64,000 bases of DNA from Chlorokybus atmophyticus (taxonomy: Eukaryota > Plantae > Mesostigma and Chlorokybus algae). Each line of letters starts with the position of its first letter. Position 1 is the first letter of the stretch. The DNA is taken from assembly GCA_009103225.1 (NCBI GenBank), contig RHPI01003041.1, positions 267,439 through 331,438 of the forward strand, read 5' to 3'. The position numbers and the translations under genes were made by a program. This document shows, piece by piece, positions 31,261-43,597 of the stretch. Below the pieces are notes generated by a model. The model searched no databases. It was not told where the DNA came from and saw nothing but the letters and a program-made list of their open reading frames with translations.

Positions 31261-31533
31261 CTTGTATTAACATGCAGAGATGTACATAGCTGAAAAGCGT
31301 TGTTTATAAAATTCCCCTCATTCAATGGATTATAATCTCATGCGAAAACGTTTTGTACGTTGACACGCGAGATATGTTGCATTGCAACACCAATTGATAC
31401 AAAGCGCGTGCACATGGTACTGGTGCATTTTGTGCTTGACTAATATGTGCCTTTAAGCATATACATAATACATTAATTCCCTTGTAGCGAATTGTGCCAT
31501 GGTTGGCATATGCTTGCATTTATGCAAGCCATC

Positions 31534-31776
31534 TGTCGGGTCGAGGGGAGTCGAGGGTCACTCTGTCTCGGACAGCTGCATGGACAGCCATACTGTGCTG
31601 GACACGCTGCTGCGCCACCTGGGTGACGCGTAGCAAGAACAGAAAGATGACCTCCACCCTCATGGTGACAAGTGCTTCGTGCAGCTGAGGTGCTGCTGCT
31701 GGGTAGTACGGGCAGATGGAGTCGGTGTTTTCCCTAAGAACATGCTGTGCCGTAGCATACAGAGTCAACAAGCCAC
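31534..31776. repeat. Repeat B, terminal copy (B2)
   Basis: Matches 32369-32611 at offset 835, with 3 substitutions in 243 bp by manual alignment. Confidence 0.95.
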
Positions 31777-32366
31777 TACTATGGGTAGTGCTGTTTACAC
31801 AGTTCTTTGCGTGAGTGGGAGAGAAATTACACTGTTACGTGAGGTGAATGAGCAAGCAACACGTGGATGCTATGCCCTGACTGATGCCAACAAGCACACC
31901 GCGACCAAGTACACAAAGCTCACAGCAAGAACAAGCACAGTGCACAAGAACATGCACAGGCTCTCACACGGTGAGGGGATTCTTGGGAACCAGGACGGTG
32001 TGTTCGTAGTTCAAGTCGCTTCACAAGCTCTTAGCTTTCTCACTTACAGTGTCACCAGCTGATCCGGTGAACACTGTGCCTACTTATACAAGTCAACTCA
32101 TGACTGTCCAGAACATAAGCTAACGGTCATATCGAGGCTATTTCCACAGGAAATGCCCACTCAATATAGAACCGGACTTATAACTGAACTCACAACTGAA
32201 CAGCTACGCGCGGTGCCTATGCAGGCTATGGTCACGAGCTACTCTAGGGACATGACCTAGCTACTGGTCAGAGGCGCGCGCGGGTTGCCATGCTGGTAAG
32301 CCGGGCGAGGGTCTCGCTGTAGGCATGCCCGATGACGACTGGCATGCTTGGGCGATAGGCATGACA
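31763..32366. repeat. Repeat A, internal copy (A2)
   Basis: Matches 42043-42646 at offset 10280, with 4 substitutions in 604 bp by manual alignment. Confidence 0.95.
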
Positions 32367-32368
32367 GC

Positions 32369-32611
32369 TGTCGGGTCGAGGGGAGTCGAGGGTCACGCTG
32401 TCTCGGACAGCTGCATGGACAGCCATACTGTGCTGGACATGCTGCTGCGCCACCTGGGTGACGCGTAGCAAGAACAGAAAGATGACCTCCACCCTCATGG
32501 TGACAAGTGCTTCGTGCAGCTGGGGTGCTGCTGCTGGGTAGTACGGGCAGATGGAGTCGGTGTTTTCCCTAAGAACATGCTGTGCCGTAGCATACAGAGT
32601 CAACAAGCCAC
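32369..32611. repeat. Repeat B, internal copy (B1)
   Basis: Direct repeat of 31534-31776, separated from A2 by the dinucleotide GC. Confidence 0.95.
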
Positions 32612-32618
32612 CCCCCCT
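32611..32618 (-). other. Candidate polypurine tract (AGGGGGGG on the minus strand)
   Basis: G7 run between the integrase stop (32656) and the start of repeat B1. Confidence 0.55.
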
Positions 32619-32655
32619 GGGCTCTGGGGAAGGTTCGAGCTCCAGAGCTCAGTTA

Positions 32656-34059
32656 CTAGCGCAAGTGAGGAGGGCCGTTGGTACGGCAGTCGTCGCACCA
32701 ATATTCTTCCATAGGTATCGTGTCCAAAGGTGGCTCCAGGCAGTAGTTATGCAGGCCTTTGTTGCAGCCATCACAGAGCATCATGAGTGCGTCGTCGCCG
32801 GCGCTGCCGCAGTGTTCACAGCGTGTGCTGCGCGCAAGACGAGGGTGCTGGATACGCCCGAAGCCGGCTACGTAAGGGAGGTGACATGGCGCACAGTTCA
32901 CCATGTTGTCCTTCAACCTTTCTCCGTTTTGACCAAGGAGGTCCAGCACCACTGTGGGGTACACTTTGAGTACCTTGTAGACGGTGCGGCCTACGGAGGT
33001 GTCAAGCGTGTCTTTAGTGGCTGCCATGCGATAGGCAAAGTCTCCCGCTTGGAACCGCTGTTGGCGCTCCTTGTAAAAGCCGCTGCGTACGCGCTTGTAG
33101 CGCAGCGTGTCGCGATGCTGCGCGATGCGCAAATTGTTGAAGGCCATGGGGACGGTGCGCTCGAAAAGTGCGGCGCGCGTGGTGATGTCGTGGTGCATCC
33201 AGTCAGGGTCGTCGAGGTTGTTCACGACGCGATCCACCTCCTGTTGTGCACGGAAGGGGAGCAATGGTGGTCGCCCAAACAGCAGGTAGTACGGGCTGTA
33301 CTCCCGCAGAGCCGCCTGTTTTGACAACCGATATCCAAGGGCCACCCATGGGAGGTGTTCATCCCAAGTATCCTTCTTGTACTCCAACACGTATTTGCGG
33401 AGTGCCTTCTTGATGGTCTGTACCGTCCGCTCGGCGAGGCCGTCGGCTTGAGGGTGATCACGCGAGGTACGGCGGTGGTCGATGTAACATTTGTCCAAGA
33501 GGGTGTCGAATTCCCCTCTGAACTCAGTACCTTGGTCGGTGATGACTTCGGCGCAGCTGCCAAAGCGGCTGAGAACGTGAGAGAGGAAGGCTTGAGACAC
33601 CCCCTTGCTGCTCTTGTCGGGTAATGGCACCAGCTCCACCCATTTGGAGAAGTGCTCAATCATGACCAGGATGTAACGGTTGCCACGTGCTGAGGGTGCC
33701 AAGTCCCCCAAGATGTCGAGTCCCCATCGGTAAAAGAGACCGGAGATGGGGAGTGGGTGCAAGGTGGCGCTACGCGTGTTGAGGCTGGCACGCACCATGT
33801 CACACTGCTGGCAGTGGCTGACGAACCTTTGCACCTGTTTTGTTAATCCATACCACCAATATTGTGCTCTCACTAGACTGACTGTGCGCTTGACACCAAA
33901 GTGTCCAAGCTCAGTGTGGAGGGAAGTGATGATGTCCTCGCGCGTGACTGGTGTCGGCACTTCCTTGTCTTCGTCGTGGAAGCGGCGATACAGCTTGTCA
34001 CCTGCCCATCGATAGTGACGGGTGCGTTGGTTGACCCGGTCCTTCTCTCGAGCGCTCAT
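32656..34059 (-). pseudogene. Integrase (H2C2 zinc finger + rve DDE core) with C-terminal PHD finger (32686-32820)
   Basis: HTELGH...CQQC; RWGLDILG, ITDQGTEF, DGLAERTV; CEHC...LCDGCNKGLHNYCLEPPLDTIP...WCDDC. In frame with the RT ORF across one TAA. Confidence 0.93.
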
Positions 34060-34080
34060 GCCAGAGGGGAGATGGCCACG

Positions 34081-36519
34081 TTAAAGAAAGGAGAGTGATG
34101 GCTTGTCGTGCCATATGTCCTGCCTGGTGTCAGTGGACGCCAGCTCTGTGTCATCGACGTCAATGTCGGCTGCGTGGGCGTCTCCCAAGGGTGTGATTGC
34201 CGCAGGGTCGGTAGACTCAAGGGCAGGAATCTCCTCTACCACTGCTGAGGTTGTGGTGTTGGTCTTGCGCCCTGAGCGCAACGCGGCAGCAGCAAACATG
34301 GCTGCCATGGTGGGAGCTATTGCTGCAGGGATGAGCTCATGCCGCGCTCCAGTTGCGTCGTTGGTGCTGAGGTGAGGGTTGCGACTGAGGCCATCGGCGT
34401 CTTGGTTGGTGAGGCCAGCGCGGTGGTCAATCTCGAAGTCGTATTCCTGCAACAGCAGGGCCCATCGAGCAAGTTTCCCTGTCAGATGTTGGTTGGTCAT
34501 CAGCCACTTGAGGGGCTGATGACCAACCAACATTTGATGATCGGTGATCAGTTGGAACTGTCGACCAAAGAGGAAAGGTCGGAAGAAGGAGATGGCCCAC
34601 ACTGCAGCGAGGCACTCCCCTTCGTAGCTGCTGTAGTTGGCCTCGGCGCTGTTGTTGCTTCGGCTGGCGTATGACACCACCCGCTCCTTCTTGTTCTCAT
34701 CGTGCTGCACCAGCACCGCTCCCATCCCCAGCTTGCTCCAGTCGGTGTGAAGGATGAAAGGCTTGGCGTAGTCCGGACGTTGAAGGATGGGAGCGCTGGT
34801 GAGTCTGCTCTTCAGCTCCTCGAAGGCCTGCTGTTGCGGCTCCTTCCACGCGAACTCCACCTCCTTCTTCAGTAGCTCGTTGAGGGGCCTTGCGATCTTC
34901 GCGAAGTCCTTCACGAATCGGCGATAATAGTTGGCAAGTCCCAAGAAAGCGCGCAGGCGTGTGAGGTCTGTCGGGGCAGGGATAGCTGCCAGAGCCTCTA
35001 CTTTTGCCTGCTGCACATACACACCATGGGGCACAATCATGTGCCCTAAGTACGGCACCTTGTGGGTGAAGAAGGTACACTTGTCGGGGTGTACGGTCAT
35101 CCCCACTCCCTTGAGTCGTTCCAGCACCGCTTCGATGTGCTGAAGATGCTCCTCGTTGCTGCGGCTGAAGATGAGGATGTCATCGATGTAGCACCGCGCG
35201 CAGTCCAACCCCTTCAAGGCTTTGTCCATGACGCGTTGAAACTTGGCGGGGGCATTCTTCAGCCCGAACGGCATTACCTTCCATTGGTACAACTGTCGGT
35301 TGCCCCAGAAGGAGGTCTTGTGCTTGTCCTCGTCCTTGATGGCGATCTGGTTGTACCCCTGACGCATGTCCAGGATGCTGAAGACTGTGCAGTCTCCCAC
35401 ATCATCAAAAATACCCTCTGCTGTGGGCATGGGGTACCGGTCTTGCTTGGTCTTGTTGTTGAGGGGACGATAGTCGCCACACATGCGTCGCTCTGTCCAG
35501 TTGCCTGCTGAATCCTTCTTCAGGGGCATGACGGTTGCTGTTGCGAAGTCCGACGTGGACTCTTCGATAAGGCCTGCATCCAGCAGCGCCTTACATTTCT
35601 GTTCCACCAAGTCTTCTTCCAACTTGGAGAGCCTGTATTGTCGCCGGAACACCGGCTCAGTGTCCACTAGCTCGATGTCCATCTGGTACACCGAACATGT
35701 ACCCAATTCCTTCACATTGAAGCTGAATTGGCTCCTCCATTTATTGAGGAGAGCCTCCAGCTTCTCTCGAGTGTCTTCCGTGGCCAACGGGCCAATGGCA
35801 TGGTCCCAGGAGGTCGCATTGGCAACCACAGGAATGTCCTCCACTGTTACTGCCGCTTGCTCCTCCATGTGAACCACCTCGAGAGCTGTGTGAGCTGCCT
35901 TGGTGTTGACGCGATCAGCCCACCCCCCAGCCAAGTGTTCGAGATCCTCGAAGGACACGTGGCGGTCCTGCGACGCGAAGCTCAGCTCCAGCAGCCATAC
36001 CATGCTGTTCTGGTCCATGGCGCGACCAAGCAGCTGGCATTGCTGATTGTTCGTCAGCGATGAACCTGTGATGCTGTTGGGGAAGAAGCCCATGGCGCGT
36101 TCACGTTCGCGTGCGTTGGGTTCTTCCAACGTGTTGGTGGTTGCATCAAATACCATCCCGTCACCACCGTTCCGAAATGCGTAGGAGCCCGGGTAGGATA
36201 CCAATGTGGGGAGTGCGCGACGGGGCTGACCAGGCTGATTGCACTGGTAGAAGTGGTTGTGGTCATGATGCAGGACAGGTTGTGCTGTGCGGCCGGGGTC
36301 AAGGATGTCGTCGACCAGCAGATTGCGCGGCCGAGCGCTGCGCGTGTATTCGGCGGTCATGAGCTCTTCCACGGTGGTCAAGTTTGTCCATTTGGCACGT
36401 ACACGATGTGCGCGCGAGCCATGTCGTGCCGCGTTCACCTTGAGTGGGTGCCCCAGAATGGAGCAAACTTGTCGGTAGCTGGAGGCCACGTGCGGACGCT
36501 TGTCGTCCTCTGAATGCAC
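34081..36519 (-). pseudogene. C-terminal half of the MTase, then gypsy reverse transcriptase and RNase H
   Basis: RMCGDYRPLN, MPFGLKNAP, YIDDILIFS, YLGH, LRAFLGLANYYRRFV, FILHTDWS and NYSSYEGECLA. Confidence 0.95.
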
Positions 36520-36930
36520 ATTTTCGATGACGTACCCCAGGGGTCTGGAGATCTAGTGGTGTTGAAGGAGGTGGATGATCCTCATCAGCTCCCAGAACAA
36601 CCTGGAGCGAGGGTTTTCGAGGCCTTGTCCCTTGCCTGCCTTGGAGTGCCCTTGGCATTCCCATCCAGCTATTAACAGGTCGACGTTGCCGAGGGACAGT
36701 AGGTGATCTTCAGTGATCAGCCGGACGTCCTGTGGCAATGCTTTGAGGCTGCCTTGCAACGCCGAGAGGGGTAGTTGACGTGGATACCTGGTGTGCAGTT
36801 GGCGTAAGTGGTGCTTGAGGACCGTTTGCGCGTGTGGGTCTGGGTCGCAGTAATAGTATTTGGTAACCTTCACGCCCGTGTTGAGGACCGCAGCAAGACC
36901 ACTGCCAATGCCTCCAAACAGCTCCAACAC
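36000..36930 (-). pseudogene. Cytosine-5 DNA methyltransferase domain inside Pol
   Basis: Motif I VLELFGGIG, IV IAGWECQGHS, VI VIENV, VIII AHRVRAKWTNL and X LLGRAM. One in-frame TAG at 36553-36555. Boundaries are approximate. Confidence 0.88.
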
Positions 36931-37818
36931 TGTGATGCCCTGTTGTCTGCGAAAGGTGTGGAATTCCACCACTCCGGTGGCCACCATATGGTGGTCCTGC
37001 ACCTTGACGTGGCTTCGGTAGTTGGGGAAGCGCGTGGTGATTAGTGGGTGGCTGAGCAAGATGTGTGCGTCCACCTGTGCGCGCCAGCGCCGTTCAGCTG
37101 GGTCTTGTAATGCTACTTCCACGGTGGCATCCTCCTGCTCCTCGTTGTACGGGATGGGAGAGGGGTCGCCGGTTTGACACGGGGTTGTGGCACCAGCAGC
37201 GACTTGCGTCCGAGCACCGTCGTATATGGCCATTACAGCCTTCCGGGTGCGGGCGTGTCTGCGTGTGGCCATGGCAGCCATTTTGCGTTGGGCGCGCGTG
37301 CGCGAGACCAACTCGAGAGGCAGGAAACCCTGTACCTCTCCGTCATCCTCATCCCAATGTGGCCGAAACCACGCTCGTTCTGTCCAGTAGTCGAGGCCCA
37401 TGCCCACAGGGAAGTTGAAGTCCTGCCCAAGCAGAAAGTCGAAGGAGCCGGCATTGGTGACCACGCATTGCTGGACGATCTCGGTCGTGTGGGTTGGGTC
37501 TAGCCCTGTCAACCGAATGCAAAAGGCCTCCCTGGTGACTCTCATTACCTTATCCCGGCTACCTGTGGCAGTGTCCAACACGTACGGGCAAGGCACCAAG
37601 TCGGAACTGGTTATGCTTAGGGACCGCGCGAGGAAGCGCCCGATGATGACAGGCTGTGCTCCGGTGTCCAACATTACCCGCTTGGGCGCCAGACCGTTGA
37701 TGGTAACGTGCTTGCCTTGGTTGGCCACCATGGCAGCGTTGGCGTCGATACGCAACCTCTTCATACGAGGTGTCTGTTCCTCTGACTCAGTTGTCTCAGC
37801 TGGAGATGCTGAGCGCAT
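36553..37818 (-). pseudogene. Aspartic protease plus N-terminal half of the MTase
   Basis: RVMLDTGAQPVIIG and FDFLLGQDF. Same frame as the RT and IN ORFs. Confidence 0.88.
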
Positions 37819-40800
37819 GGCAGCCAGCGCTCCTTTGCCTGCTGGATCCGGAGAACCCCCTCCTTGCCCTCTCCCTCTGCCGAACCGACCTTGTCGAGGT
37901 GGTTGGTAGACACGGGGGGGGCCTCGGTGCTGGAGGTTCCGGCGCCGGTTGTGGTGGCGGCGCAGGTGGATGACGCCTCTGCGAAGCTGGAATCATGCCC
38001 GCAGGCGTACCCAGTGGCTGTGGAGGGAACCCCGGCGGACCCGGTGTTTGTGGGCCTGCCTCGCGTTCAGCTTGCTCCGCGGCGTACGTCCATCGCACAG
38101 CATGAGCCGCTTCTCTGACCAATGTCCCTTCCCACGTGGCCGTGGGCTCGGTGTCCGTGTCGGTCCAATGATGATATTGAGGCATGGGCTGCAGGTATAC
38201 GGCGCGTAGTAGCTGTCGCCGCATGTCGTGAGTAATGGTGGGGACTCGTAGGATCCCTGCCATGTAGGCATCCCACCTTCCTGGTACCACTCCCACATCG
38301 AGCACAATCATGGCGCGAGCACGTAGGGTGCGCTGGAGGTCAGTCTGCTGTGCGTGTAGCTCATGAGCAATGGCGATGCGCCGCCGTTGCCATGCGGCTT
38401 CCACCCCTGGCAGCCGAAGCATTGCCTCTTGCACTCCCTCCAGCGTGTCCGGGGCTGTGGTGGCAGCCTCGTCGTATGCTTGTCGCAGCAAACGAACGAA
38501 TGCCCCCAACCATGATGCTCGGTTGCCAAAGGCAAACAGGGGGACAGCCGGGTGATTGGCAACGAGCCATGTCACGAGACGAGCTCGAGCGGCGCTGCCC
38601 TCTTGCATCCCCATCATCTGTCTTAATGTGTTGCCCTCAGGCCTGTGCAACATGACTGCTTGCCGGATGAGTGCGGTACGGAGTTGTTGCTCCCCCACCA
38701 TACCAGCTCCTCCTCGTTGTGTGGTGTCCCCTTGCGGGGTGAGGTACCCTCGCCCTGCATCGCGTTGATCCTCAGGCATGTCTTCGACCAAAGGAGGCAG
38801 CAGCGGGGCGATTACTCCCCTCAATTGTTGCGCCAACGCCCTCGCTTGGTCTGCAACAGTTGCGTGTCCCGACTGCTCGATGGCGATCGCCGTGGAGTGT
38901 GCTGTGGTCGGCGCCGTGGAGGCGCTGGCAACATGTGCTGGCGTTACGGTGGGTACGATAACGGCGTGTGCTGCTTCGTACGCTTGTCGGCGCGCGTCCA
39001 CTTGGGCAGCTTAGTCCATGCGATACCGATGGGCTTGTTCGAGTGCAGAGAAACGCTCTTGACGATTGCCTGGAGTGAGCCCCCGGAGAGCGGGATCAGC
39101 GCCCAGCGCGATGTCAGACATCGTGACCACGAGGTCTTGCAGTTTGTGTCGCTGGAGGCCGAGTGGGTCCAGTGGTGAAGGCTCGAAGTCGATCTGTTGA
39201 GCGGGCATGGGCTGTCGCGATTGACTGGGTGCGCCCTGCGACCGTGCGTGTAATGCCAGGAATAACTGGATGGCCAGTTCCAACACCGCAGGTCGGCGAT
39301 AGGTGACCCCGAACAGACGATCCCTCATCTCTGGTGCAGTACCGGCGAGGATTTCATCCTCCAGCTGCTGTTGTGTGGGTTCCGGCAGCGTGTGGTATTC
39401 TGGCGGTGGTAGGGGCAAGATGCGATCATCGCGTGCCACGCGCGTGGTGCGTTGCCCCCCTGGTCCGTACGCAATAGTGGTGGGCTCCACGTTGCGTAGA
39501 ATCGACGCCCAGGCGCGTTCTGCTTGAGGCCCGCGTGGCACTTGCTGTGTGACGTCCAATGCTGGTGGCGGTGCCGTCCGGCCCTCAGGAAGTGGTGCGG
39601 TGGGTATGGCAGCACTACTGGAGGCGATGGTGGTGGCACCTGCCGCAGTTGTCGTCACTGAGGTGGCGGCTGTGAGGGTGGCAGCAGTTGCGGTTAATGT
39701 GGTCGCTCCGATGGAGGCAGGAGTGGTGGATTCACCACTTACGAACCCAACGACCATGGTTGCTGCGGCGTGGGTGCTCTCCATCACCGGGAACAGCGTG
39801 GTGCCAAGAATGCTGACACCTGCTGTCGTGGTCGGTGTGGACGCCGACGGTGTCGTCGACGGCGTCGTCCCAGCGGTGGTTGTGGCTGCCGAGGCAGCAT
39901 CACTTGTGGCGTCCGACGATGCCGCTGTTGACGACGCGCCAGCTTCCCTTCGCGCCCGTCTGGATGGTTGTACGCGTGACGGCGTGGGAGTGTCCCTATC
40001 CCATTTCGGTGCCATCAATGCCCACCTAGCAGCATAGCAGGCTTGATAGTCCTGCTCCTTGTTTTCCTCCAGCTGTGCCACGCGCGCCATCAGGGCTGCC
40101 ACTTGGTCGATAGCTGGTGGATTGGTTGGTGCCTTTACAGCAGCAGCTCCAGCGCGAGGACGTCCCTCAAGTCCTTTGTGCTGTGGAGGGCGGTTTTTCC
40201 CTCTATAGCCAGCTTCTTCCTTGCGGCCGCCAGCGTTGTTGTTGTTGTTGGGGTTGTGGCCACCAGCGTTGTTGCCGTTGTTGCGACCACCAGCGTTGTT
40301 GCTGTTGTTGTGGCCGCCAGCGTGGTTGCTGTTGTTGTAGCCCCCGTTGTTGTTGTGGTTGTTGTGGCCGCGGTAGCCAACAGCGTTGTTGCTGTTGTTG
40401 TAGCCAATAGGGGGCCGCAGCTCAGGGAACTTGAGCCAGCATACTGTCTCCAAGTGTCCCGTCTTGTGGCAGTGGTCGCACACAAGGTTGCCGTAATCTT
40501 CGGTGCACTCCTTTTGGTAGTGGCCATGTCGACCACACCGGTGGCACAGCACTGGAGCCACAAGGGCAGCATGAGCTGACCGTTTATCCTTGTGGTGGAT
40601 GCCTTGCGGCTCTCGGCTGCGGTCCCGCCGAAGAGGCTCTGCACTTGTGCCTGCCATAGGCCGTGAGGCACTGCGGTTGGTGTCCAGCACCGCTTTCTCA
40701 TACACTGCGCGCTTATGGATGGCTTGTGCAGTCTCGAAAGCTTCCTTGAGGGTGTAGCCAAGGGGCCTGCTGTAGTTCAGAGTCAGGCGTGTCGACTCGC

Positions 40801-41830
40801 TCAGAGCAGCATCCAACTCATTGACGTATATCACTGCAGCAGCCTCCTCACTGACAATCCTGTAGTCAGTGTCCTTCAGCAGACCTTCCAGTCTGGAGTA
40901 CAAGCGGAGGGGATCCTCATTGGGCTTGCGTCGGAAGCGTCTCAGCTCCTCAACCTTGCTGGTGGTCTGAGGAGGGAAGGTGCGGCGCAGGGCAGCGTAC
41001 AGGTCCTTGAGTGGCGAATCAGAGATGGCAGCACCTACGGAGATGGCTGGTGCGCGCAGTGCTACTGACCCGAGGGTGAAGGTACTGCCTCCCGCACGAG
41101 AGCCAGGTGTTGCCGGAGGTAGAGGAGTACCCCACTCTGCGGCTGCCGCTTGCTGTGCAGCTCTTTGTTCCTCAATGATGACGGCAGAACGGTCAAGGAT
41201 GCGGACTCGACGTGTGGCCTCCTTGGACTCAACTTCTGCAGGGGTCAAGTTGACAAGTACCAACTCCGGTTCCTCCTCCTCTGCCTGCTTGAGAGCTGCA
41301 GCTATGGACAAGCCTGTTACTGCAACTGAAGTGGCAGGTGGAACGACACCTGTTGGACGGTGCAGCGATGCAGATGCTATGGTGCTGGCAAGCTCGCCAT
41401 AGCCGTCTACTCGATGCAGTTCAGCAACGGACTTCCAGACATCGTGTGCTTCATAATCAAGATACTGAGCAGCAATGTGGAAAGAGATCTCATCTGACCA
41501 GTCTTTGTTCTTCAGTGCTTGCTGCCGCATCTTGGAGTGGAACTTGATGATGAACTCATCCAGCGAGGTGGTGCCGGCACGTCCGGAGAAGCGCAGGGAT
41601 GTGGTTGAACTGGAAGACTCCATCTCGTTGTCGTCGCTGTCCGATGATAGTGGAGAAGCTTGATGACGAGGAGTAGAGTGGAGCGGGGTGAAGCCGGAGA
41701 TGGAGCGCGAGCCTCTGCTGCTGCGGTCGATGCTCCCGTCACTGGTCCGCTCGTAGGTGAGGTTGGTGGTTGGGCTCCAACTGCTGAGGTCACCCTCGTC
41801 TATTGGGGAGAACGGGGTGGGCCTGCTCAT
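37796..41830 (-). pseudogene. Gag-like ORF with two zinc knuckles, Asn/Gly and Thr-rich tracts and an unknown C-terminal domain; one in-frame TAA at 39011-39013
   Basis: CHRCGRHGHYQKEC and CDHCHKTGHLETVC. ORFs 39011-41830 and 37796-39001 share a frame. Confidence 0.85.
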
Positions 41831-42030
41831 ACAGCTGGTGCGATGGTGAAAGTGGAATGAAGGGTAGAGTGTTTGTGTTCTACAATGGGATCTCCAGTGC
41901 TGCTATCACCCAACACACTAGCGCTTGTGCGCGCTATGCGATGACGGTGACAACACTGCACTGTGATGTGTACAACTACAGATTGCGATGCTGATGTACA
42001 GCTTGCAACTACACTTACTTGAGCAAAGAG

Positions 42031-42045
42031 GGTGACACTGTAAGT
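42031..42045 (-). other. Candidate self-priming primer-binding site
   Basis: Exact 15-nt reverse complement of 42322-42336. No TGG tRNA-type PBS follows the repeat. Confidence 0.7.
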
Positions 42046-42646
42046 CAACAAGCCACTACTATGGGTAGTGCTGTTTACACAGTTCTTTGCGTGAGTGGGA
42101 GAGAAATTACACTGTTAAGTGAGGTGAATGAGCAAGCAACACGTGGATGCTATGCCCTGACTGATGCCAACAAGCACACCGCGACCAAGTACACAAAGCT
42201 CACAGCAAGAACAAGCACAGTGCACAAGAACATGCACAGGCTCTCACACGGTGAGGGGATTCTTGGGAACCAGGACGGTGTGTTCGTAGTTCAAGTCGCT
42301 TCACAAGCTCTTAGCTTTCTCACTTACAGTGTCACCAGCTGATCCGGTGAACACTGTGCCTACTTATACAAGTCAACTCATGACTGTCCAGAACATAAGC
42401 TAACGGTCATATCGAGGCTATTTCTACAGGAAATGCCCACTCGATATAAAACCGGACTTATAACTGAACTCACAACTGAACAGCTACGCGCGGTGCCTAT
42501 GCAGGCTATGGTCACGAGCTACTCTAGGGACATGACCTAGCTACTGGTCAGAGGCGCGCGCGGGTTGCCATGCTGGTAAGCCGGGCGAGGGTCTCGCTGT
42601 AGGCATGCCCGATGACGACTGGCATGCTTGGGCGATAGGCATGACA
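42039..42646. repeat. Repeat A, terminal 5' copy (A1); LTR-like, TGT...ACA, 608 bp
   Basis: Direct repeat of 31763-32366. Contains TATAAG on the minus strand at 42368-42363. Confidence 0.95.
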
Positions 42647-43087
42647 CATCACGTAATGCCATATATTCAATATGTACGTCATGTGTCCACACATATCCTG
42701 GCTTATATGTCATGGAAGCACATATAAACACTGTTTTTTTGCGCATTGTAAGTTTCAAGCGTCATGCATAATGCAAGTGCTGAGGTAAGTTATTAGCAAT
42801 TACCATTACAATGTACAAGTAACATGTTATAGCAACACGTCATTGCAATGTCCTCTTGCTATGCACAAGTTTCAGATGGGCGCCTCCACCACTTGCTGTT
42901 ATTCTCACCAGCGCATGATGCATATCTCATGCGCAGATAGCAACTCAACCCCATAAATATGTTGTTTGTGTAAGTCAATTTGCTTTGCTGTTGTGCTGCG
43001 TTGCTTGCTATGCACGTTGCTTGCTGACTTTTATTGCTATACCCAATGTCTTGCTGATCCAAATTGGGCCATTTGGCATGTATGCTA

Positions 43088-43597
43088 CAGTCTACCCCCT
43101 TTAAGAGCATACCCTTTAATCTCTGCTATCTTATGCTCTTGGCGGGGTAATTCTCTTGACGTCCAAGAGCATAACATGCTCTTGGACTTCAAGAGTTTAT
43201 GCTCTGAACACCCAAGAGCATAACGTTTATGCTTTTGGGTGTTCAGAGCATAAACATGCTTTAAGCGCGGTTTCATCATGCCCATCACGCCCATCACGTC
43301 ACCCTCGTCGCGTCGTCACGTTAATTACGCTGATTGCGCGTCATACCTTGCCTATCACGCCCTAATCGTCACGTTCATTACGCCATTATGCCACACCCGT
43401 CACGTTTCTTCCCTCGATGTTAGGAATATGCACACTCAGATTTGCAAGAATGTCATGAAAAAAGAATACTCTCTTCGCGGTTAATCATAATCTCTTGAGC
43501 ATCAACTTGCCTGTAAAACCATTGGTAATCTGACATTCTATACTGTTAGCGGGGTTATTCTCTTGGAGCGAAGTCTCTTAGCGGGGGTAGACTTTAG
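43088..43597. mobile_element. 510-bp non-autonomous Tc1/mariner/pogo-type element (MITE)
   Basis: TA|CAGTCTACCCCCTTTAAGAG ... CTCTTAGCGGGGGTAGACTT|TA gives ~20-bp imperfect terminal inverted repeats with TA on both sides. No ORF. Confidence 0.7.

Follow-up and report, generated by a model that had tools for sequence, protein, structure and literature searches.

How can a retrotransposon with the enzymes of a Gypsy element, including a DDE integrase, come to lie in its host genome with split direct repeats in place of two long terminal repeats (LTRs)? The question is raised by an element of Chlorokybus atmophyticus located within a stretch of 64,000 nt (GCA_009103225.1, contig RHPI01003041.1, positions 267,439-331,438, forward strand), referred to here as the window.

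Layout and coding content of the element

In the sense direction, which is that of the minus strand, the element (31530..42650; Table 1) reads A1-ORFs-B1-GC-A2-B2. It starts with TGTCATG, finishes with CCCGACA and is flanked by a CATC duplication whose fifth base does not match; TG...CA ends with a target-site duplication of 4-6 bp are usual for Ty3/Gypsy elements. Between B1 and A2 lies the palindrome GACA-GC-TGTC (GACAGCTGTC), termed att in the following, with a single occurrence in the 64-kb window. The initial annotation had proposed this layout together with the TGTC...GACA ends, the duplication and the junction, all of which were confirmed by sequence comparison, and the divergence of the B pair was reproduced. 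For A1, which had been placed at 42646-42039, the repeat and its 4 mismatches in 604 positions stand, while the inner boundary had to be corrected to 42043. A 14-nt repeat is present at the end of A1, at the start of B1 and at the A2/B2 join, where A2 and B2 overlap through it. Neither the window copy nor its relatives have a full, colinear LTR at each end; the 5' end consists of A only and the 3' end of B-A-B. The element is a Gypsy element by its enzymes, not by its terminal structure.

Table 1. Positions of element features in the window
Feature	Position	Strand	Basis
Target-site duplication CATC, left copy	31530..31533	.	Sequence comparison
B2, terminal copy of the 5' part of U3; ends ...CCCGACA = integrated 3' end	31534..31776	-	3/243 mismatches vs B1
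A2/B2 join via 14-nt direct repeat; putative U5-to-U3 cDNA end-join	31763..31776	-	Also in run X1
A2, internal copy of the promoter-R-U5 part	31763..32366	-	4/604 mismatches vs A1
att palindrome GACA-GC-TGTC, middle of the RT-defined LTR	32363..32372	.	Unique in window
B1, begins immediately 3' of the polypurine tract	32369..32611	-	Repeat comparison
Polypurine tract ending in G7	32611..32625	-	G-run tract before B in relatives too
Integrase (H2C2, rve; D122-D182-E217) and C-terminal PHD finger	32659..34080	-	Pfam
DNMT C-terminal part, reverse transcriptase, RNase H; in-frame TAA 34081-34083	34084..36552	-	Pfam
Aspartic protease and N-terminal part of C5 cytosine methyltransferase; in-frame TAG 36553-36555	36556..37992	-	Pfam
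404-aa frame, gag continuation past a TAA; without Pfam match	37799..39010	-	ORF list, Pfam
Gag-like ORF with CCHC knuckle (weak match)	39014..41902	-	Pfam, E 0.0023
Self-priming primer-binding site, immediately 3' of A1; pairing extends to 42045	42031..42042	-	
A1, begins TGTCATG = integrated 5' end; contains TATA and predicted start	42043..42646	-	Repeat comparison
Predicted RNA 5' end/self-primer, 15 nt complementary to the primer-binding site	42322..42336	-	
Target-site duplication CATC, right copy	42647..42650	.	Sequence comparison

A Pfam scan of six ORFs gave matches to Asp protease, C5 DNA methylase, RVT_1, RNase H, H2C2 and rve integrase, and PHD. The domains are arranged in the order PR-DNMT-RT-RH-IN-PHD, with the methyltransferase between protease and reverse transcriptase (RT), and the zf-CCHC match of the gag-like ORF lies below the curated cut-off. 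The integrase possesses the HHCC motif and an intact D-D35-E triad. Among solved structures, the nearest RT is that of Ty3 (E 7e-75), far above the retroviral RTs, and the element is a Ty3/Gypsy retrotransposon. In the ORFs scanned, no chromodomain was matched behind the integrase, its position in chromoviruses such as Tcn1 and Chlamyvir; a PHD finger is found there instead. As initially annotated, the only recombination enzyme is the rve integrase: Pfam revealed no tyrosine recombinase in the six element ORFs and five further ORFs of the window, nor in the 23 ORFs scanned altogether. Three in-frame stops interrupt the coding frames, and the window copy is probably non-autonomous at present. 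Relatives such as L036 and L028 have an uninterrupted pol frame. An alternative genetic code was considered for these stops and dropped, since TAG terminates a host frame resembling secA. PsaD indicates a host among the eukaryotes of the green lineage, without specifying its class. An 18-nt insertion near 34517, within the DNMT-RT-RNase H frame, is missing from the contigs of runs X1-X3.

Priming and the RT-defined LTR

The predicted self-primer is located 32 nt behind a TATAAG motif (42368-42363). Neither the self-priming primer-binding site (PBS) nor the in-frame stops had been part of the initial annotation. Pairing between self-primer and PBS is kept with different letters in L051, L059, L066, L011, L002, L018, L023, L036, L156 and L158; an exact scan did not recover the pair in L003, L033b, L047, L069 and L077, and nothing convincing was found in L028. 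As the PBS adjoins A1 and the polypurine tract (PPT) adjoins B1, in the window as well as in relatives, the earlier proposal that the RT-defined LTR corresponds to B-GC-A is supported.

The palindrome and the integrated ends in related elements

Relatives with 33-60% integrase identity have unrelated LTRs in which the palindrome, located 60-250 nt behind the PPT, is the only common sequence; among the LTR regions of nine families compared, it is the sole nucleotide match. It is present at all 18 bryophyte-type BAB ends, at some of them decayed through point changes, and follows the PPT in 13 of the 15 testable non-bryophyte locus groups; L021 and L054 show no att. This count excludes nine non-bryophyte loci whose sequence beyond pol is too short for att to be scored (L001, L005, L008, L024, L027, L030, L159, L160 and L162), and L163 is a weak unrelated match. 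At L019, the site is a compensatory variant, GGCA-GC-TGCC. The catalytic triad of the integrase is conserved across the clade. A protein search identified no relatives in viral contigs, and 75 exact matches to a 14-nt att pattern in such contigs were taken as chance.

That copies would end at the palindrome and be flanked by 4-bp duplications, as had been predicted, agrees with the ends observed. All 34 tabulated independent bryophyte-type 3' ends finish with ...CA (18 as B-A-B and 16 as B), all nine tabulated 5' ends start with TGTCATG, and four of five full copies have a 4-bp duplication matching at three or more of four bases (P 1.3e-4); no such duplication was found at L003. Outside the tabulated 3' ends are L006 and L060, which end inside repeats, and the irregular L062, in which B-att-A is followed by unrelated DNA, and L076, which is broken within A2. 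The B-only ends could partly be due to assembly collapse in short-read contigs. Of the forms that had been foreseen, A...BAB and A...B both exist, but ABA...B was seen at none of the nine 5' ends (P 0.002 if its frequency equalled that of BAB, P 0.04 at 30%). A conventional symmetric 5' LTR, i.e. B-GC-A at both ends of other family members, which the initial annotation had set against its own reading, was similarly found at 0/9.

The same layout and palindrome occur in dozens of independent insertions, in at least three lineages and in Klebsormidium. As judged from these comparisons, the element belongs to a widespread Gypsy clade of the green plant lineage whose inserted copies have both ends at a conserved mid-LTR palindrome. 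The view that an ordinary Gypsy element has here undergone a single rearrangement, been inserted in tandem or been misassembled is refuted, as a general account, by this recurrence across lineages, and we attach hardly any probability to it. Misassembly of the locus is unlikely, since there are SNPs between the copies, unrelated genomes have the same layout, and the A2/B2 joint is also found in run X1. Split repeats combined with an internal junction characterise tyrosine recombinase elements, and our scan for this enzyme covered ORFs of the element and the window. A DIRS/PAT partner might, in principle, integrate circles at the palindrome in trans, with the DDE integrase as a passenger. However, the TG...CA ends, the 4-bp duplications of unrelated targets, the clade-wide conservation of the catalytic triad and the lack of a tyrosine recombinase in any element ORF scanned render this highly improbable.

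The A2/B2 join

The A2/B2 join deviates from the modal sequence in 10 of 16 copies, the att spacer in none of 16 (Fisher p 2.5e-4), and the indels at the join appear as would be expected of an end-joining scar. L157, which represents a third lineage, has a B-att-A-B layout with a shortened join. The join is situated within TTCAA/TATA repeats that are able to slip, and the join-inheritance tree is star-like. Contigs of runs X1 and X2 indicate that the element family is multi-copy; among the 12 listed of 58 entries no loose ends at att were found, and there was no empty allele in these contigs. At the left junction, the X1 contig extends 27 bases into the element, below the 31-base bridging rule.

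The join might also be inherited. In a templated route of the PAT/TOC type with a DDE exit, the RNA would extend into B2, the internal B1-A2 copy would serve as the template for the missing ends, and the integrase would open the new junction. Such a route accounts at once for the occurrence of A...BAB only and never of ABA...B, and the layout is identical to that described for PAT elements (PMC4157794). The precise joint of the window's family, recurring in run X1, and the one join variant common to the sister copies L009 and L073 point in the same direction. Against it stand the covarying PBS at the A1 end and the invariant PPT/B1 boundary, which mark B-att-A as an ordinary product of reverse transcription, the clustering of indels at the join, and L059, whose join has lost bases that the A1 end and the B1 start both retain. 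We consider the templated route rather unlikely.

A proposed route of replication and integration

The integrated ends lie in the middle of the RT-defined LTR, and we regard it as probable that the DDE integrase cuts att internally while the blunt cDNA ends are joined, which would result in A-ORFs-B-A-B. The covarying TATA, primer and PBS suggest that the RNA begins in A1 and primes itself in a Tf1-type fashion. Ordinary LTR reverse transcription, as indicated by the PBS and PPT positions, would then yield a linear B-att-A-ORFs-B-att-A. The scars are consistent with the U5 end then being linked to the beginning of U3, either through end-joining or through a template jump of the RT, a step that the 14-nt terminal repeat would aid in the window's family. 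This might occur before integration, as a 2-LTR circle, or just after it, as repair, so that a covalent circle would be one of several routes to the U5-to-U3 join. If the integrase cleaves each strand of GACA-GC-TGTC behind CA, in a staggered fashion, the products would have CA-3' ends and 2-nt 5' overhangs, similar to processed retroviral ends, and insertion would create the 4-bp duplication. The absence of ABA...B makes an added assumption necessary, namely that the left att is preferred, being completed first after second-strand transfer; the outcome would be the replication-competent A...BAB form. Opening of a symmetric 2-LTR circle, as initially suggested, does not fit unaided, and random opening is disfavoured by the 0/9 ABA 5' ends compared to 18/34 BAB 3' ends. 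The A...B copies might arise if the two att sites are both cut, if a 1-LTR circle is the precursor or if B1 and B2 recombine at a later time, and would be sterile because they have no 3' R. Whether this represents an ancient Gypsy clade throughout the green lineage, in which the integrase site has moved to a templated mid-LTR palindrome and an obligately end-joined (circular) cDNA is opened there, we see as evenly balanced.

Productive use of LTR circles by integrase is a long-standing retroviral question. LTR circles are usually viewed as by-products (PMC7197481, PMC5314604), and retroviral integrases are described as able to cleave palindromic LTR-LTR junctions (PMC1905944, PMC1180852). If the integrase cuts at att, end-joined, circle-like copies would be the productive form and not a dead end. 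The whole clade is seemingly organised around an internal integrase site, the 10-bp palindrome being kept and the remaining LTR turned over, which offers a precise substrate and, with the scarred U5-U3 join and the invariant att, testable marks. The clade also shows that split repeats can evolve in company with a DDE enzyme. LTR finders that rely on a pair of terminal LTRs are likely to miss or mis-delimit it. If true, the model would describe a retrotransposon that integrates by way of an IS-like circle junction and has converged on the PAT/DIRS layout with no tyrosine recombinase involved.

Comparison with known systems

The initial statement that such a route is not known to be described for Gypsy elements applies, apparently, to the mechanism, for which our literature search found no publication, but not to the permuted layout. 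For KnitGypsy-Dnmt3 of Klebsormidium nitens, the legend to Fig. 4c gives DIRS-like repeats (A-coding-B-A-B) with Gypsy domains, and both elements combine a Gypsy pol and a cytosine methyltransferase with this repeat layout (PMC5890265). Proteins of K. nitens rank among the best integrase matches and presumably represent KnitGypsy-Dnmt3, the comparison with K. nitens proteins covering integrase similarity. The att palindrome, target-site duplication and priming mode, mapped here across many families, do not form part of the KnitGypsy-Dnmt3 description in the sections relevant here, nor does a replication model (PMC5890265).

PAT, TOC, Kangaroo and Ngaro elements have split direct repeats and encode a tyrosine recombinase (PMC4157794). 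They share with the window element the order A1-ORFs-B1-A2-B2 and the internal end-to-end junction, whereas the latter has an rve DDE integrase, a protease, PBS and PPT, TG...CA ends and 4-bp duplications. Tf1, Sushi and Tcn1 resemble it in the self-priming PBS, the PR-RT-RH-IN order and a chromatin-reader domain behind the integrase; here, however, a PHD finger replaces the chromodomain, and the integrated ends differ from those of the RT-defined LTR (PMC6317226). In foamy virus and HIV-1, a DDE integrase cuts an abutted-end palindrome internally, as our sequence data suggest for the window element, but there the U5-U3 join itself forms the palindrome, and a colinear provirus is restored (PMC1180852, PMC1905944). 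In the window element, by contrast, the palindrome is a templated site within the LTR and distinct from the U5-U3 join; the resulting copy is permuted. In the bacterial DNA transposons IS3, IS21 and IS30, a DDE enzyme opens two abutted ends with a 2-3 bp spacer between them, the circle junction being made by the transposase and not copied by RT. A similar DDE opening of abutted ends is proposed for the window element, at a junction that would be copied by RT.

Architecture and coding content

The split repeats of the retrotransposon in the window form a layout that is real and clade-wide, the clade being Gypsy by its enzymes and not by its terminal structure. Recomputation returned the A1-ORFs-B1-GC-A2-B2 anatomy of the initial annotation, the outer termini TGTCATG and CCCGACA, the CATC on both flanks and the unique internal palindrome (att; GACAGCTGTC, solely at 32363-32372); the A1 end at 42646 was kept, while the other was corrected from 42039 to 42043. 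A1 and A2 differ at 4 of 604 positions, B1 and B2 at 3 of 243, and one 14-nt sequence occupies three places, the A1 end, the B1 start and the A2/B2 overlap.

Positions of the split repeats in the window element, and higher-GC relatives bearing att
Feature	Position or loci	Strand	Remark
A1	42646-42043	minus	repeat comparison
Internal region	between A1 and B1	minus	
B1	32611-32369	minus	followed by GC spacer
A2	32366-31763	minus	repeat comparison
B2	31776-31534	minus	repeat comparison
Higher-GC att-bearing loci	L002, L018, L019, L020, L023, L028, L032, L035-37, L041, L074, L156-157, L158, L161		

Pfam matches give the domain order aspartic protease, C5 DNA methylase, RT, RNase H, H2C2/rve integrase and PHD finger, with a weak match for a gag CCHC knuckle. 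The integrase triad is D122-D182-E217 with D35E spacing, and the closest solved structure to the RT is that of Ty3. The integrase is of the rve type, as initially annotated. Scans of 11 ORFs of the window and 12 ORFs of five relatives revealed no tyrosine recombinase, which argues against such an enzyme acting in trans, a highly unlikely explanation. In-frame stops at 39011, 36553 and 34081, together with an 18-nt RNase H insertion missing from the contigs of sequencing runs X1-X3, mean that the window copy is probably no longer autonomous; a 27-bp inverted repeat (34482-34537) coincides with the insertion. The C5-methyltransferase separates protease from RT in the window (36556-37992) and in locus L002 (976-5082), while weak matches put it after RNase H and before integrase in L036 (4281-10598) and L028 (797-6814); L018 and L020 gave no Pfam match. 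The methyltransferase may thus have been gained, lost or moved repeatedly within one clade.

Several neighboring features were also observed. Immediately to the right of the element (43085-43597), inverted repeats enclose a stretch that contains several tight hairpins and is possibly a small non-autonomous DNA transposon. Loose ends in runs X1/X2 at 31740-31776 reveal a diverged subfamily whose branch points coincide with the A/B and PPT/B positions. An intron-split nuclear psaD indicates a green-lineage eukaryote as host.

Conservation of ends and att among relatives

Of 8000 candidates scored in an integrase search, 278 proteins reached E<=1e-30; almost all are of the rve+PHD type, and the named ones come from Klebsormidium, Calypogeia, Haematococcus and a 'Chrzof' record. 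An alignment of 46 of these proteins provided the best 80 of 479 metagenome loci and 8 genome-contig loci. Many are bryophyte-type, with low GC and 76-81% identity to Calypogeia proteins (five tested); identity among the integrases of the window element and of the compared higher-GC families is mostly 38-60%. Seven contigs carrying this clade (L156-L162) are filed under five bacterial genome assemblies and are likely eukaryotic contigs mis-binned into MAGs.

Merging loci that share a flank left 34 independent 3' ends, 18 reading PPT-B-att-A-B and 16 PPT-B, all terminating in CACGACA, CATGACA or CACAACA. These are the A...BAB and B-only forms predicted at the outset; the predicted mirror form, ABA...B, did not appear, as all nine independent 5' ends read flank-TGTCATG-A-PBS and none had B upstream of A. 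Irregular loci L062 and L076 were set apart, as were L006 and L060, which are cut by contig ends. In L062 (4373-5305) B-att-A runs as far as the U5 end, beyond which lie unrelated DNA and a second element in inverted orientation, the sole possible case of an end away from att; L076 is broken within A2. Four of five two-ended copies (TACA/TACA, GGTT/TGTT, ATTA/ACTA, GCAT/ACAT; L003 a miss) have a 4-bp target-site duplication agreeing at at least three of four bases (P 1.3e-4), and other lengths fit less well. The A and B pairs of the two full A...BAB copies diverged alike (9.6/7.4% and 10.7/10.5%). L157 brings the lineages with a B-att-A-B end to three, and a one-off rearrangement or misassembly deserves next to no credence.

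The palindrome lies 60-250 nt behind a G-run in 13 of the 15 groups of higher-GC loci reaching far enough, with one mismatch in L018 and a compensatory GGCA-GC-TGCC in L019; L021 and L054 do not show it. It is the sole nucleotide match common to nine LTR regions compared. Contigs L018, L035, L036 and L156 have terminal overlaps of 123-169 nt, so that the assembly closes them into circles across the att junction; collapse of multi-copy B-att-A is expected to do this, and the overlaps do not count as evidence that such circles exist.

Position of the LTR and a probable replication route

A G-run PPT immediately precedes B1, and a 12-15 nt tract abutting A1 is complementary to a stretch inside A that starts 32 nt behind TATAAG. 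The PPT and PBS positions thus define the LTR as B-GC-A and place the palindrome at its centre, as had been proposed. MFE and centroid folds of the predicted 312-nt 5' RNA contain the 15-bp primer/PBS pairing (z -2.5). Pairs whose letters differ between loci occur in L051, L059, L066, L011, L002, L018, L023, L036, L156 and L158; an exact scan missed them in L003, L033b, L047, L069 and L077, and L028 offered nothing convincing. Self-priming is known in Tf1/Sushi/Tcn1 elements (PMC6317226), to which the window element would be similar in this respect.

Across 16 independent members of a single bryophyte-type family, the sequences as read by eye suggest that the A2/B2 join is a scar. The join is modal in six and deviant in ten (four -2, two -1, +T, +C, about -7, about -215), which may include inherited as well as fresh variants; by contrast, 16/16 have an att spacer of 2 nt (Fisher p 2.5e-4). 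These copies also share an unchanging G|ATAC boundary at the PPT, and the A1/PBS boundary does not vary in 9/9 (eight by pattern, L069 by eye). The join sits in short repeats prone to slippage; end-joined two-LTR junctions bear changes of this kind (PMC7197481).

We consider it probable that ordinary self-primed LTR reverse transcription would be followed by end-joining of U5 to U3, with the DDE integrase cutting each strand of the internal palindrome after its CA. Random opening of a symmetric circle with two identical att sites, as initially envisaged, predicts ABA...B as frequently as A...BAB, which is at odds with the 5' ends (P 0.002 at 50%, 0.04 at 30%). The asymmetry would follow from a preference for the left att or, as PAT-type models have it, from inheritance of B2; a PAT-type templated route with exit by the DDE integrase would thereby account for the missing form, and we regard it as a rather unlikely alternative. 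In the end-joining route, a left-att preference might arise if second-strand transfer leads to completion of the left att before the right one, or if the plus strand that finishes last jumps to B. A covalent circle is not required, because a left-att cut in linear cDNA together with U5/U3 break repair gives the same product. The proposed mechanism is sharply testable.

Comparison with known systems

Cleavage at att would leave 2-nt overhangs, similar to processed retroviral ends. Circle junctions resembling the att arrangement are formed by IS3, IS21 and IS30. Junction palindromes are reported to be cut internally by the integrases of foamy virus (PMC1180852) and HIV-1 (PMC1905944). A literature search that took in few subscription journals, Repbase reports or theses returned no account of an internal att, its conservation or a replication model. 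The accessible text of a 2026 preprint names Gypsy-DNMT3 without giving the layout. The layout itself has been noted once in print: the legend to Fig. 4c of De Mendoza et al. 2018 (PMC5890265) describes KnitGypsy-Dnmt3 as combining DIRS-type repeats with Gypsy domains, a combination that the window element shares.
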